Assembly (NCBI GenBank): GCA_000004985.1
Contig: GG738923.1
DNA: 64,000 nucleotides
Direction: 5' to 3' (one strand)
From: Naegleria gruberi
Taxonomy: Eukaryota
Each line of letters opens with the position of its first letter. Position 1 is the stretch's first letter. Positions 55,154-61,656 of this stretch are shown here, in pieces. The position numbers were made by a program, and so were the translations under genes. The notes beneath the pieces are model-generated. The model did not search any database and was not told where the DNA came from. It saw only the letters and a list, made by a program, of their open reading frames with translations.

Positions 55154-58085
55154 GTGTTGAATAGGAAAACAATTAAAAAAATGCCTCCAAAATATAGTAA
55201 CAACTCCTATCGAAATTCGAATAATAGGAACAGTCATCATCATACACCATCAACAACAACACCAATCACTCCAACACCTTCATCTGGAGTACCTATTTCT
55301 AATAAAACACCAACACAAACAACAACTGATCCATCTCGTATCATTCCACAACCGCGTAGACGAAGATCAAGTGTTAATCGTGAGCAACAATCTTCTCCTT
55401 CAGGAGAATTAGAACATACAACAACAACAACAAGTCCAAATACAACCAATGGTTCTAACAATCATTCAACAACAGTACATAATAATAATACAACAAGTAC
55501 TCAAAATAATTTAGATGATGATTGCGAAAATCAAGCAGGACTTGCTACTAATGCTATTGAAAAAATCTTTAGTACCACTCTTCAATTTAATGCAGAATCT
55601 ATTCTTTCTGCTGTTGATTTGCTTCAACAAAGAAGAGAAGAACAATATCCAAATGAAAAGAGAAAGAGATTTACCATTAGAGAAATTCTCGAAGTTGGTA
55701 CAAAAAATCCAATTTGTAATGATAGACACAATGATTTACCAGATCTTGACTATAGAAAATTAGATTGGGGAATTACTCCTGTTCCACCAAAAGCAGCAGA
55801 ACTAGCAAAAAGGTATGTTTTTATTATTGTTGTATTAATAATAACAATTGGATAACTTTTTACACTACTTTAGACCATCAAGACAATCCTCTGGTATCAA
55901 TCAAAATGAATCTCTATTCGGAAGCAAACCATTCTCAGGAAGAGGAAGATCACTCAGCAGAGAAAATAATGCTATTCCTTCCAATAATACATCTAATACA
56001 TCGTCTTCAACAATAACAAATTCTTCATCAGGTAGCAGTAGATTTGCCTCATCTGCTATTACTAATAGTAGTAGCACTGTTATGAGAACAAGTGGAAAAG
56101 GAGCACTTTGGTTTGACCCTGGTATTGATACAAAGGAAAATAATCCTCTTGAATTAACCAATGAGGAAATTGAAAGAAAGAAAGCCTTTGAAGAGTTTAG
56201 AAAGATTAACCATGCTACAGTAGGAGCAGGTTCCTTCTTTGACTTTGGAGGAGAGGAAGGAGAGTCTCTTGAATCTGGACTTCATAGCTTTGATGATGAA
56301 TTACTTGATGAATCCCTTGAACCAACTTCTATGGATGAAATGGGCGGAAGTAATGCTAGTGACTTGGAGAATTACTTTAATACACTCAGCACTGGAGGTC
56401 ATCAAACACAGTTTGGTGGAATTGGAGCATCCCACTTTACTGAAGCTTCCCTCTATCCAAAAGAACAACAATTGAATGAAATTGAAGATGAATTTATTAG
56501 TCTTCCAACACCAAAATCAATGATTCCATCCCAAAAGAGAGACAAGCCACTATTTGCTCTTGATGATTCCTTGAATAAGGAACCAGTCAAACCTGTACAC
56601 AAAGGAGATCCTGTCATTTCCTCAGTACTTCAAAATAAGTCTGGAAAGTCTAGATTTGGTTTTGGAGACGGATTTGAATCTGATATTCAACCACAACAAC
56701 ATTCACAACCTCTTCCATTCACAACAAACAATGGTGGAGCAAGCAAATTCTTAAATATCAATAATCAACAAACTGGCTTGAATGTTGAAGATCAAGCTAT
56801 TTTACCAATCCATCATCAAACTCATACAGGAGGTGGAGCAACTATTAATGTAACAGCACTATTTGGAGGCTCATCAGCAATGCCAAGTCGTAAACAATCA
56901 AATCCTCCTATTCATCATCATGAAGCTTTCAATAATTTTGCACCTACAACAATTGAAAAGCATCCAGAAGAGGAAATTAATCATAACATTCACTTGGAAC
57001 AATTCCCAGTTATTGATGCATCAAATCAAATTTCAATGATGAGTGCCGAAGATTTAGAACTTCAATTCCTTAAATCATTAAATGATACAAACCAACCATC
57101 AATGCAAGAGTCTCAAGTACCTGAAGCAAACAAGATTAATCAACTTTTTAAACCAATTTCAAATGAACAAAATGTTGCACATCAAGAAGCTACCACTCAA
57201 CAACCAACTTCACAATTTGTTTCTCCATTCCAAAAATATCAAGAACAAAAACAAAATGAAAAGTCAGAAACTAAATTACCTGAAGATTTATCCCTCACTC
57301 CTTCAAAACAATCATCAGTTTCCAAGACCAGTGCAACTTCACCAGCATCGGCTGCCCAAAGAAAACTTTCAAAGACATCAGCTAATTCTCCATTTGTTCC
57401 ATCACATTTGATGAAAAAGATGGGTACCAATACTGAAAAGAAGATTAAGCTTAAGGTTAACACTCCAGTTACAAATACAGCAGCTGCAACCAAAACAGCA
57501 ACATCTCAACCAAGTAATGTTACAACATCAACAAATAATGGTTCATCTAATGTTACCACATCAACAGCTAATGTTGCATCTGTACCTGTACAACCAACTG
57601 TAGAAACTCAACAATCACCAATGATTAATCAACAACAAATGCCAATCATTCCTCAAAATGAATTTTTATCACAAAATAATATGGTACATTTGAATCCAAA
57701 CTTACTTCCACCAAATGGAAATCAACCTCCAGTTTCTCCAACCATTCCAATGAATATGGGAATGCCTATTAGCCCTCTCATGAATCAAAATCAACCTCCA
57801 ATTAGAATTTTGCAAAAGCCACCAACAGGTTTTGTGCCATCCCAACCATATCCAAACAGTCCAACTGCTTTCATTCCATTTAGTCCCCAAGGCCATCCAG
57901 TTCATCCTGGAATTCCTGCTGGTTTTATTCCACCAAATGGTAATATGTTCCCAAATGGATTCATTCCAAACAATGGCATGTTCCCACCACATCCAAACAT
58001 GTTCATGGGTAATCAACAACAAGATTTCTCTTCTCAAGCTCTTTCTCTCGAAGATTTGGAAAAAGAACTCATGAATCAAAAGTAA
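55154..58085 (+). CDS. Large S/T/N/Q/P-rich low-complexity protein, unknown function; 2 exons, 55154..55812 and 55874..58085
   Basis: A GTATGT donor at 55813 and a TTTAG acceptor at 55871-55873 join ...AAELAKR|PSRQSSGINQNE... in phase. Long poly-T/S/N/Q/P tracts, a short acidic region, and a C-terminal LSLEDLEKEL. No confident family assignment. Confidence 0.45.
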
Positions 58086-58218: not shown

Positions 58219-59264
58219 ATGATGAAATCATCATCCCTCCTACTCATTGTCTTGTACTTCTTGGTTTTAACGTCATCAACTATGGTTGATGCCCATGCCA
58301 GATGGAAATATCCAACGTAAGTCATAAATCAACTTTAATATGTTGAATCAACATTGTTCTCTTATCAAATGAAAATAGTCCAAGAACATCTGATTCTGGT
58401 TTAAAGTGTTAGTACTTTATTTTTATGTGTGACATTAATTATCCAATAAATAGCTTATCCTTGTGGAGGTATTGAATTCTTCGGAAATGGTCAATCAATA
58501 ACAACTCTTCAACCAGGAAAACAAACTCTTCAATTTGAAGAAACTATTTCACATACAGGAGCTCCCTTCAGAATTGCTTTGAGTATTGATTCCGATTCTA
58601 ATTATGATTCATTGTAAGTTAGATTGCTCCTTTTTAACATGATTCGAATAGATTTTTGTTATTATAGTATTCTCATAGATCACATTCCACACAATGATGC
58701 AACTGAATCCTCTTCACTCAAGATTTATCAATACGAAGTAACAATTCCAGACATTGATTGTCCAAAGTGTTCACTTGCTTTGACTAATCCAATGACTGAT
58801 AAGATCGCTGCTGGAACTTGTTGTGCTTATCCTAAAGCATCTTCTTCAAGTCCTCAATGTGGAAGTGTTTATCACAGTTGTGCCAATATTGTTATTAAGG
58901 GTAAAATTCCAGTTGACCAATTCAAAGCTAACTATACTTATACTGGTCCATGTGGCGATTATCAAAGAGAATCTGCTGTAAGTTTTTCATTCTATTCGAA
59001 ACCATTCCTTAAACTAAACTAAATGTTTAGACCTGGGTAAGACAATCTGATTCTTCATGGAAATTGAGTGCAACTTTCACCAATTTTTATGTTCCACCAA
59101 CTTCACAACAATGTCCAATTTTCAATTCAACATGTGCCACTGGATCAAAGAGAACTTCCACCTCAACTGCCAACACTAATAATTCATCATCTTTGAGAGG
59201 ATTGCATAATGTAATGCTTATTGGATTTGTGGTTGCATTGATTTCAGTAATTGGATTATTTTAA
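58219..59264 (+). CDS. Secreted LPMO-like (AA10/AA15-type histidine-brace) protein with C-terminal hydrophobic (GPI/TM) tail; 5 exons, 58219..58316, 58379..58407, 58454..58613, 58668..58977, 59032..59264
   Basis: - Signal peptide MMKSSSLLLIVLYFLVLTSSTMVDA, then a mature N-terminus H-A-R-W-K-Y-P-T-P-R, cf. AA10 'HGYVESPASR' (His1...P7..R10).
- Candidate second brace His in IDHIPHND, about 73 residues in.
- ...GSVYHSCANIVIKG matches the LPMO C-terminal 'F/Y-x-x-C-(A/S)-D/N-(I/V)' strand, cf. CBP21 FYSCSDV.
- A Ser/Thr linker precedes the C-terminal hydrophobic tail LHNVMLIGFVVALISVIGLF.
- All four introns (42-63 nt) keep the frame. Confidence 0.55.
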
Positions 59265-59934: not shown

Positions 59935-61656
59935 ATGGAAACTAAACAAACTAATGTTGCAAATTCGGAAACAAATTGTTTGACCTCATCAAATAGTAAA
60001 TCGAACAATTCATTGACTAGATGCGTTAGCAATATTTTACATAAGGGTTTTAGTAAGAAGAGAAGTGAGTCAGAGCAAGGATCAAATTCTTGTATACGAA
60101 AGGATGGACGAAACTCCAAGTCCTTAATGCAATCAGAATACAAATGCACAACAACAGCTCCTGCATTCTCATCAAAAGGAGCGCCAGCGTCCACTCTCAC
60201 CATTGCAACTCCTCAAAAGATTCCTTCACCTTCACTAGACGAAACCAATGATAACAATTTCTTCCACTCCCAACACAATTGTACCAAGAGGAGAAGAAAC
60301 ACAGTCTTCTTTCCCTCAACTCCAAGTATTGATGGTGTGAAAACTCCAACTTCTCCAAGTGGCTTGTTTCACTACTCGAGGCGATTGAGTGTTGATCATG
60401 CAACAATGGGAAACATTTTAGGAAGAATTATGTTTGTTGAGGAGAGACAAGTCATGTTTCTTAATTTCGAGAATTTAAAGATTGAATCGATCAAACATTT
60501 GGAGAATATTGCTGCATGTATTCGAATGTTGGTAAAAACTTCGATGGAGTCAAAGAGGAAAGATGGTCAATTTGATGGAAAGATTAAATGTTTTTTGAAT
60601 GATGACGATTTAGATTGTGATTCACATTTGTTTGATACCTATACACAAACAGTTCATATGAACCCTCTATTCGAAACTGTCACTCGATACACCAATAAGA
60701 GTTTATTTTCAGATCATCAGAGAAAAATCCAAAAATCCCTCAGAGATTGTGAAGTCTATGTAAAGACATGTCCATGCATTCTGGATCGTTATGTTTTCAT
60801 GGTCGATGATCAGATTGGTAAGGGAACTTATGGAACAGTTTCACTTGCAATGGATTTGAGTTTGGGAAGAAAGGTAGCTGTCAAGAGATTATGTAAGAAA
60901 ACTGTCAAACTCATTGGTATTGAAGAGTATGTGCAAAATGAAATGGAAATTATGAAACTCTTGAGGGATAATCCACATGAAAATATTGTCCAGGTATTAG
61001 ATATTCATGAAAGCGAGGCAGAATATCTATTTGTAATGGAGTACTTGTCAGGTGGTTGTCTGGATAATCCCTTCGATGAATTTGAAATCATTCCAGAAAG
61101 TCAAGCACAATTATACTTTTGTCAACTGGTGGATGCTGTTGATCATTTGCATTCAAAGTTAAAAGTTTTGCATCGAGATATACAGCCATCTAATTGTTGC
61201 TTTCTAGATACTGAAAAGAAATGGTTAAAATTGGTTGACTTTGGTTTGAGTTGTCAACCAACAGATTTCACTAAGAAGGAACATACATTATTTTGTGGAA
61301 ATAGTAATTATGCATGTCCTGAACTGTTACTAAAGAAGGCATATGGATCTGAAGTTGATGTCTATGCACTAGGAGTCCTTCTCTATAAGATACTGTTTGG
61401 TTGTTTCCCATTTCGTGGAGCTCAACAGAAATTGCTCATGCACTTTACAGTTCCACTGAAGGATGATGTAAATGGAGATGATGCAATGGGAAGTGATGAT
61501 TGTGGTCAGAATATTTCGAAATGTTGTAAAGATTTGTTGCATAATATTTTGGAAGTCAATTGTGAAAAGAGATTTTCCATACAAGATATCAAGAATCATC
61601 AATGGTACAAGATTGGAAAAACTCAGAAGGTGGATTTACTAGAAAGTCACGAATAA
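59935..61656 (+). CDS. Ser/Thr protein kinase (CAMK-like) with about 280-aa S/N-rich N-terminal extension; intronless; atypical catalytic-loop residues
   Basis: Kinase subdomains:
- IGKGTYGTVSLAMD (Gly loop)
- VAVKRL (VAIK)
- HRDIQPSNCCF (catalytic loop; canonical HRDLKPEN)
- VDFGLS (DFG)
- YACPELL (APE)
- DVYALGVLLY
The catalytic Asp, Asn and the DFG Asp are retained. Confidence 0.75.
   Translation: METKQTNVANSETNCLTSSNSKSNNSLTRCVSNILHKGFSKKRSESEQGSNSCIRKDGRNSKSLMQSEYKCTTTAPAFSSKGAPASTLTIATPQKIPSPSLDETNDNNFFHSQHNCTKRRRNTVFFPSTPSIDGVKTPTSPSGLFHYSRRLSVDHATMGNILGRIMFVEERQVMFLNFENLKIESIKHLENIAACIRMLVKTSMESKRKDGQFDGKIKCFLNDDDLDCDSHLFDTYTQTVHMNPLFETVTRYTNKSLFSDHQRKIQKSLRDCEVYVKTCPCILDRYVFMVDDQIGKGTYGTVSLAMDLSLGRKVAVKRLCKKTVKLIGIEEYVQNEMEIMKLLRDNPHENIVQVLDIHESEAEYLFVMEYLSGGCLDNPFDEFEIIPESQAQLYFCQLVDAVDHLHSKLKVLHRDIQPSNCCFLDTEKKWLKLVDFGLSCQPTDFTKKEHTLFCGNSNYACPELLLKKAYGSEVDVYALGVLLYKILFGCFPFRGAQQKLLMHFTVPLKDDVNGDDAMGSDDCGQNISKCCKDLLHNILEVNCEKRFSIQDIKNHQWYKIGKTQKVDLLESHE

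Follow-up and report, generated by a model that had tools for sequence, protein, structure and literature searches.

A five-exon gene for a probably anchored protein with a predicted N-terminal histidine

The 64,000-nucleotide stretch of contig GG738923.1 analyzed here (the window) is AT-rich, with a G+C content of about 33% and short introns, and at positions 58219–59264 it carries a genuine five-exon gene on the plus strand, whose exons splice in frame to an 831-nt coding sequence for 276 amino acids (Table 1). An earlier note on this DNA, made from the letters alone, had proposed that the product is a secreted, C-terminally anchored protein resembling lytic polysaccharide monooxygenases (LPMOs), which depend on copper. 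The encoded protein consists of a signal peptide (MMKSSSLLLIVLYFLVLTSSTMVDA, codons 1–25), a ten-cysteine domain that starts at His26, a stretch rich in Ser, Thr and Asn, the spacer LRGLHN and a hydrophobic tail. A paralogue elsewhere in the window was considered and rejected, as tblastn found no locus other than this one that encodes such a protein.

The spliced protein is matched, far beyond chance, by homologues from Naegleria lovaniensis (E 1e-111), Naegleria gruberi (P0002, E 1e-99) and Naegleria fowleri (FDP41_007507). These Naegleria homologues are 62–66% identical to it, and all exon junctions are free of gaps. The 23 residues of HARWKYPTPRTSDSGLKSYPCGG, which run across both micro-exon junctions, are identical in P0002. 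The small 5′ exons of 98, 29 and 160 nt that had been read from the sequence are present, in frame and with GT..AG borders, and the four small introns proposed with them are supported by this identical junction peptide and by the first and last introns of the N. lovaniensis orthologue, which share position and phase with those of the window gene. The agreement of this syntenic orthologue supports the exon joins.

The mature protein is predicted to begin HARWKYPTPR, with cleavage at V-D-A|H26 after Ala25. In 77 of 81 aligned relatives the His26 column holds a histidine, the other four sequences being N-terminally truncated or mis-called. Cleavage before this residue was assigned by the −3/−1 signal-peptidase rule, and all 77 of the His-bearing homologues carry one of A, G, S and C at position −1 and one of V, A, T, S, I and C at position −3, behind a segment mostly of signal-peptide length. 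Since the rule holds here and in 77/77 homologues, a histidine as predicted residue 1 of the mature protein, as the earlier note had claimed for this gene, can be regarded as an invariant of the family. A histidine in this position is the defining prerequisite of the histidine brace. The likeness of the start to the AA10/AA15 N terminus, HG(Y/R)(V/L)xxPxSR, which had also been pointed out, extends to the H-x5-P-x2-R spacing (with conservation of 100% for Pro32 and 94% for Arg35) but not to the second residue, which is Ala, Ser or Ile across the relatives and never Gly.

The 5′ micro-exons cause gene callers to lose this diagnostic N terminus, so that the His1 signature is under-represented in databases, a lesson for annotation generally. 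That the context of His1 is easily overlooked had been foreseen: the gene calls P0003, P0004 and P0007 (metagenome and EukProt) begin mid-gene or in intron-derived sequence and lack both the signal peptide and His1.

At the other end of the protein, the Ser/Thr/Asn-rich stretch covers approximately residues 235–253. We judged the signal for glycosylphosphatidylinositol (GPI) attachment by inspection and with a hydropathy script. Candidate omega-site residues (N250-S253) are followed by the spacer and then by VMLIGFVVALISVIGLF, the hydrophobic final 17 residues (Kyte-Doolittle score 2.91), with zero residues after it. This layout of linker and tail (residues ~235–276), recognized from the start as that of GPI-anchored X325-like proteins, recurs in the three Naegleria homologues. 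The window protein is very likely tethered to the membrane, presumably through a GPI anchor.

Table 1. Features of the gene at 58219–59264 and of its neighbors in the window
Feature	Coordinates	Strand	Length	Remarks
Exon 1	58219..58316	+	98 nt	Start codon, signal peptide, His26 codon, HARWKYP strand; GT donor at 58317
Intron 1	58317..58378	+	62 nt	GT..AG; position and phase conserved in N. lovaniensis
Exon 2 (micro-exon)	58379..58407	+	29 nt	Encodes (T)PRTSDSGLK including Arg35; AG/GT borders, frame intact
Intron 2	58408..58453	+	46 nt	GT..AG
Exon 3	58454..58613	+	160 nt	Encodes SYPCGG ... ETISHTGAPFRIALS; Glu72, His76
Intron 3	58614..58667	+	54 nt	GT..AG; missing in the N. lovaniensis orthologue
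Exon 4	58668..58977	+	310 nt	DHIPHND, Cys127/Cys130, NPMTDK, VYHSCANIVI
Intron 4	58978..59030	+	53 nt	GT..AG, phase 0; N. lovaniensis intron at the same position
Exon 5	59031..59264	+	234 nt	Domain end, linker, candidate omega sites, spacer, tail; TAA at 59262-59264
Signal peptide	58219-58293	+		Predicted
His26 codon	58294-58296	+		CAT
His76 codon	58552-58554	+		Candidate second brace histidine
DHIPHND cluster	58678-58698	+
Met138-Asp140	58792-58800	+		In NPMTDK
Tyr164 codon	58870-58872	+		Candidate axial residue
Ser/Thr/Asn-rich stretch	~59136-59192	+
Hydrophobic tail	59211-59261	+		Final 17 residues
Upstream open reading frame	55848-58085	+	>=745 aa	Low-complexity protein
Downstream open reading frame	59935-61656	+	573 aa	Protein kinase

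The domain is related to LPMOs at the level of predicted fold

To compare the domain with proteins of known structure, we predicted the structure of the N. gruberi homologue P0002, which is 66% identical to the window protein, with AlphaFold2 from an 80-sequence alignment. The model has a pLDDT of 82.9 (mostly above 90 in the core) and a pTM of 0.78. A Foldseek search of the PDB with this model returned the AA15 structure 5MSZ first, many AA10 structures next and X325 further down. Compared family by family, the structures gave scores of 10.9 for AA15 (5MSZ; 2.3 Å over 130 residues, 21% identity), 10.6 for AA11 (7P3U), 10.0 for X325 (6IBH), 9.6 for AA10 (5WSZ), 8.9 for AA13 (4OPB), 8.4 for AA9 (8B7P) and 8.1 for AA16 (7ZE9). 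Scores so nearly equal across the LPMO families indicate a member of the superfamily without particular affinity to a single one of them. The homologue is predicted to have the LPMO β-sandwich fold, in agreement with the immunoglobulin-like sandwich that had been expected for the window protein.

Sequence profiles gave a fainter picture of the same relationship. Among 185 relatives, BIM1-like_dom (PF20238) and LPMO_10 (PF03067) are the sole Pfam families matched repeatedly by the core domain. BIM1-like_dom was found in 7 of 81 relatives at E ≤ 1 and in 6 of 104 at E ≤ 1e-3 (best E 7e-5), in alignments that run from His1 to approximately profile position 122–136 of 140. The scores seen, 10.7–21.7 bits, all lie under the gathering cutoff of 27. 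LPMO_10 was found in 7 of 81 relatives at E ≤ 1 and in 2 of 104 at E ≤ 1e-3, mostly below threshold. A single distant relative, P0157, reaches the cutoff of 23 (23.0–25.2 bits, with 25.2 for the domain alone), whereas the clade consensus scores 16.7 bits and the Naegleria homologues gave no LPMO_10 match. UniRef labels the N. fowleri orthologue, the N. lovaniensis orthologue and one from a diatom "Chitin-binding type-4 domain-containing protein," and an LPMO_10 score of the P0157 type may lie behind these names. Judged by hidden Markov model (HMM) thresholds, the protein falls outside AA10/AA15 and X325 and would represent a separate family. The core of the earlier proposal, an LPMO-like, secreted and C-terminally anchored histidine-brace candidate in a protist, is supported by the conserved His at +1, the fold of the homologue, the weak but recurrent HMM matches and the anchors. 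We regard it as very probable that the protein is a histidine-brace copper protein of the LPMO superfamily.

A candidate copper site formed by His26, His76 and Tyr164

We examined which residues could complete a brace that starts at His26. His76 lies in ETISHTGAPFRIALS, on the same exon as Glu72, and is conserved in 81 of 81 sequences in one alignment and in 98% of 173 sequences; Tyr164 lies in VYHSCANIVIKG and is 98% conserved. The LPMO_10 profile was calibrated with fragments of CBP21, the sequence of which was checked against PDB 2BEM. CBP21 His114 corresponds to profile position 102 and the terminal Val of AIDV to position 183, which places CBP21 Phe187 at position 177. Residues 51–172 of P0157 align to profile positions 83–183 (alternatively, residue 53 onward to position 84 onward), with P0157 His70, the equivalent of window His76, on positions 101–102 and P0157 Tyr166, the equivalent of window Tyr164, on position 177. 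In an hhalign comparison of the family profile with CBP21, ITTLQPGKQTLQFEETISHTGAPFRIALS paired with a CBP21 segment in the same second-His pairing, at probabilities (0.4% and 2.9%) that are not significant.

On the strength of the LPMO_10 column mapping via P0157, the conservation and the AA10 N-terminal spacing, His76 is most likely the second brace histidine and Tyr164 is probably the axial residue, so that the brace would probably be formed by His26 and His76 with Tyr164 in the axial position (His1/His51/Tyr139 in mature numbering). The earlier note had instead placed the second histidine in the cluster IDHIPHND, at what it took to be the expected spacing. We rejected this assignment, as His76 fits better: P0157 puts its His76 equivalent on the CBP21 His114 column and carries DHIPSE in place of the cluster. 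DHIPHND is conserved in the family even though it is not favored as the brace partner. The strand pattern (F/Y)xxC(A/S)(D/N)(I/V)x(I/V) was correctly recognized in VYHSCANIVI, and the paired Cys127/Cys130 are encoded in the same exon 4 as this strand and the cluster.

Several further positions are highly conserved, namely Glu72 (97%), His101 (97%), His104 (90%), Met138 (94%), Thr139 (90%) and Asp140 (97%), and strand topology would put them at the ends of strands, on the predicted copper face. Asp140 and Asp100 are candidate equivalents of the equatorial Asp ligand of X325.

The conservation of the site also bears on whether a metal is bound at all. A metal-free surface glycoprotein of LPMO-like descent, such as an adhesin or a structural β-sandwich, would be compatible with a window protein that lies under every HMM threshold and for which metal binding is an inference. 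However, His falls at exactly +1 in 96–100% of full-length relatives from several eukaryotic supergroups, and His76 (98–100%) and Tyr164 (98%) are conserved alongside it. If there were no metal site, one would not expect the three brace positions to be conserved in this way, which makes this explanation very improbable.

Comparison with known histidine-brace families

The AA15 enzyme TdAA15A of Thermobia domestica (5MSZ) is, like the window protein, eukaryotic, with a His straight after the signal peptide and a disulfide-rich β-sandwich. The segment from His1 to His2 comprises about 90 residues in TdAA15A and about 50 here. The window protein further differs from AA15 in having no LPMO_10 match, in the motifs peculiar to its family (ETISHTGAPFRIALS, DHIPH and NPMTDK) and in that C-terminal membrane anchors are the rule. 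The mature spacing of His1/His51/Tyr139 comes near that of AA11 (7P3U, 4MAI), which is His1/His60/Tyr140 in AoAA11, but there is no sequence-level match, and AA11 proteins are fungal, secreted and chitin-active.

With AA10 (CBP21, 2BEM), the family shares the H-x5-P-x2-R strand (HGYVESPASR in CBP21), the hairpin-His-strand arrangement around the second His and the terminal (F/Y)-x-x-(C/A)-x-(D/N)-(V/I) strand, and the His and Tyr of P0157 fall on the AA10 ligand columns. In contrast to AA10, the window protein lacks the large helical L2 region, the family has Ala, Ser or Ile in place of Gly at residue 2, and the conserved Ala that precedes the second His by two residues has given way to Ile.

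X325/Bim1 (LaX325, 6IBH) is the most frequent Pfam similarity of the relatives and is aligned from His1. It resembles the window protein in its GPI-type signal and Ser/Thr stalk, its small domain, its short His1-His2 spacing and the lack of a carbohydrate-binding module. The relatives nevertheless all score under the X325 gathering cutoff, and the equatorial Asp by which the X325 site is defined has candidates at most (Asp140 and Asp100) in the window protein. X325 has been described from fungi alone (PMC10952591), whereas the present family occurs in Heterolobosea, Cercozoa, Amoebozoa, diatoms and a sponge.

Spread, anchoring and domain architecture of the family

In a profile search over 1.84 billion representatives, with clustering at 50% identity, the number of family clusters fell from 1,739 at E ≤ 1e-3 to 993 at 1e-10 and 214 at 1e-30. 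Named members come from Naegleria (Heterolobosea), Mataza (Cercozoa), Gocevia (Amoebozoa), the sponge Oscarella and the diatoms Skeletonema, Thalassiosira, Stephanodiscus and Conticribra. One homologue was found per Naegleria species, and the N. lovaniensis copy is syntenic with the window gene.

Among 81 relatives, 27 end in a GPI-like tail, among them the window protein and every Naegleria homologue, and 19 end in a transmembrane (TM) helix with a cytoplasmic tail; the C termini of the others are weak, amphipathic or truncated. In four clusters a Hedgehog-type Hint module starting CF(A/S)G..TV is appended, which implies that the LPMO-like "Hedge" domain of these relatives is released by autoproteolysis and possibly anchored through a lipid. 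The GPI-like, TM and Hint anchors are all C-terminal and leave the N terminus free, which is the placement that a free N-terminal amine requires.

The Hint module was observed (E down to 7e-26) in the diatom-type sequences P0100, P0104, P0105 and P0107, after the domain and a Pro/Thr-rich linker. In Hedgehog processing such a layout leads to cleavage and lipid anchoring of the N-terminal domain, and several diatom-type relatives put their CF.G..TV module right after the domain and linker in the manner of the Hedgehog-like "Hog" proteins. The window gene, by contrast, has a GPI-type signal and no Hint module, and its N-terminal domain bears no relation to the Hedgehog signaling domain. Long relatives (P0224, P0166, P0193, P0157 and P0147) combine the domain with other modules: PA, peptidase M28 and transferrin-receptor-like dimerisation; PAN and trypsin; type I phosphodiesterase; or, behind a TM helix, cytoplasmic WW or GYF domains. 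Some of these fusions may be merged gene calls.

One architecture joins the domain to redox partners. An uninterrupted 782-codon open reading frame on the 2.6-kb Logan contig DRR659772_10007 (L001 88-2436) encodes P0116, in which a signal peptide, His1 and the copper-candidate domain are followed by two DOMON domains and a cytochrome b561. By its domain order, P0116 would couple the putative copper domain to a chain that delivers electrons across the membrane. When P0116 was used to search for a second DOMON-b561 fusion, it returned only itself and one partial match.

DOMON/CDH-cyt-like and b561-type partners deliver electrons to fungal LPMOs, and the P0116 fusion raises the question of whether the family consists of enzymes. 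An active LPMO held at the cell surface would cleave chitin, cellulose or another glycan oxidatively, for example in cyst-wall remodelling by Naegleria, in the handling of chitin fibres by thalassiosiroid diatoms or in attack on prey surfaces. It would share with AA10 the axial Tyr164 and the H-x5-P-x2-R strand, and it would fit the P0157 score above the LPMO_10 cutoff, the enzymes found as the best structural neighbors of the P0002 model, the type-4 chitin-binding name that UniRef gives to three orthologues and the fact that the named diatom members are all chitin-producing Thalassiosirales. We consider this reading a serious rival, though less likely than the copper-handling role favored below. 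No fusion to a carbohydrate-binding module or glycoside hydrolase was found at E ≤ 1e-3 in 104 representatives, with one sub-threshold Chitin_bind_1 match among the relatives. The tether holds the site near the cell's own membrane, and the predicted copper face, as far as strand topology indicates, is rich in His, Asp and Met and lacks the typical aromatic/polar platform of LPMOs. Naegleria carries a single copy, as opposed to the expanded families of biomass degraders, and its trophozoites have no wall. We do not think that the protein is a freely secreted polysaccharide-degrading enzyme.

The same fusion would also suit a surface copper protein with a different, redox or signaling, chemistry, in which the coordination sphere would extend from His26 and His76 to His101 or His104 and the site would be closer to the CuB site of particulate methane monooxygenase (pMMO) than to that of an LPMO. 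Such a protein might be the terminus of a trans-plasma-membrane electron transport chain, an oxidase that produces or senses H2O2 or the partner of a cupric or ferric reductase. The family-specific His101, His104, Met138, Asp140 and Glu72, at 90–97% conservation, and the cytoplasmic WW or GYF domains behind the TM helices of some relatives accord with it, and a recent review names electron transfer as an open possible role of the histidine brace (PMC10952591). It seems to us rather improbable, as there is one fusion example, the spatial closeness of the extra residues is presumed, P0157 lacks a His104 equivalent (DHIPSE) and any substrate would be hypothetical.

Copper handling at the cell surface as the favored role

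The best explanation of the data as a whole, with a probability of roughly 0.45, is that the window protein is a mono-copper protein that belongs to the LPMO superfamily, sits at the cell surface and handles copper in a Bim1-like manner, its main role being surface copper capture and redox handling (0.4–0.45). Once the signal peptide has been removed after Ala25, His26 would become residue 1, and its amino group and imidazole would chelate copper as a histidine brace together with the imidazole of His76. Tyr164 would take the axial position. The site would lie on one face of the disulfide-rich β-sandwich, extended by the family-specific Glu72, His101, His104, Met138, Thr139 and Asp140, and the protein would pass its copper on to an importer of the CTR type, in the way of fungal Bim1/X325. 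The gene model, the conserved His at +1, the fold of the N. gruberi homologue and the breadth and C-terminal anchors of the family are results of the analysis, and from them we infer copper binding, the identity of the ligands, GPI attachment and the physiological role.

This role is favored by the small histidine-brace domain, the Ser/Thr stalk, the GPI signal, the lack of a carbohydrate-binding module and the single homologue per Naegleria species. It is favored also because Bim1/X325 proteins are GPI-anchored and take part in copper uptake together with Ctr1 (PMC7924993, PMC7529816, PMC10952591) and because Naegleria possesses functional CTR copper importers (PMC9035749). By analogy, Bim1 would be the closest functional counterpart of the family.

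A number of observations weigh against Bim1-like copper handling. The reductase fusion suits an LPMO enzyme as well as it suits copper reduction for uptake, and it is known from a single contig. The chitin-producing Thalassiosirales account for every named diatom match, which is probably a sampling effect. Pfam gave no match at E ≤ 10 for the window protein, either at full length or as the mature domain, and a sequence search of the PDB with the window protein and with the family profile likewise gave none at E ≤ 10. The convergence of His26, His76 and Tyr164 is drawn from alignments alone, among which the hhalign pairing with CBP21 is not significant (0.4–2.9%), and the modeled protein is the N. 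gruberi homologue at 66% identity and not the window protein itself. Finally, a search for the orthologue accessions in supplements of the Naegleria copper-deprivation paper found none.

Relation to described histidine-brace proteins

Histidine-brace proteins form a small and intensively studied class (LPMOs, Bim1/X325, CopC and pMMO CuB), and a large multi-supergroup family outside the classified ones would extend brace biology past biomass degradation. The 2023 review of the class covers AA9-AA17, X325 from fungi, CopC-type proteins and pMMO and contains no family of this distribution (PMC10952591). We found no paper in the literature searched that deals with this protist family, with LPMOs of Naegleria or with the orthologue accessions. 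The diatom LPMO10 domains of a T. rotula preprint were considered as members and rejected, being chitinase-fused canonical PF03067 domains. Automated annotation has already given some orthologues an AA10-type domain name, and the general idea is to that extent not entirely new; the distinct membrane-tethered pan-eukaryotic family with Hint and b561-DOMON fusions appears uncharacterized.

The most far-reaching version of the proposal is that membrane-tethered histidine-brace copper proteins from across the eukaryotes form an unclassified family, separate from both AA9-AA17 and X325, with a copper face extended by His101/His104/Met138/Asp140, anchored in different lineages by GPI, TM or Hedgehog-type lipidation and in at least one lineage fused to b561-DOMON. 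Taken in full, we hold this to be doubtful. If true, it would amount to a new route of surface copper capture and reduction, from Cu(II) to Cu(I) passed to CTR, common to Naegleria, both free-living and pathogenic, and to marine diatoms, cercozoans, amoebozoans and sponges. Fusions to Hint and to DOMON-b561 give leads on how such domains could be anchored and reduced, and the protein would be a testable candidate for the capture of scarce copper at the cell surface by marine phytoplankton and by protists that lack a wall. In the lethal pathogen N. fowleri, the orthologue FDP41_007507 is predicted to be exposed at the surface, and Bim1 is critical for copper acquisition in fungal meningitis (PMC7924993).

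Intron positions and neighboring genes

In the N. lovaniensis annotation, the orthologue is divided into exons of 104, 38, 464 and 255 nt. The 38-nt micro-exon among them stands at the site of exon 2 of the window gene, with the 3′ edge 9 nt off, so that window intron 2 sits 9 nt (three codons) 5′ of its counterpart (L002 4275-4416). Together with the lineage-specific intron 3 of the window gene, this shift points to intron sliding or gain within Heterolobosea or to a difference in annotation. On these comparisons the source of the window was taken to be a heterolobosean that is related to the three sequenced Naegleria species yet separate from them.

The gene order of the window is shared with N. 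lovaniensis, with a gene for a low-complexity protein upstream (39% identity), the gene described here and a kinase gene downstream (51% identity). The upstream product is rich in Ser, Thr, Asn, Gln and Pro, and its 39% identity extends over ~800 amino acids of the syntenic 1049-residue N. lovaniensis product, itself without a Pfam domain; the start of the open reading frame as listed is a bacterial-code TTG, and the true start is uncertain. The downstream kinase corresponds to a gene with a Pkinase domain at the same relative position of the N. lovaniensis locus (L002 6155-8608), which confirms the orthology of the locus.

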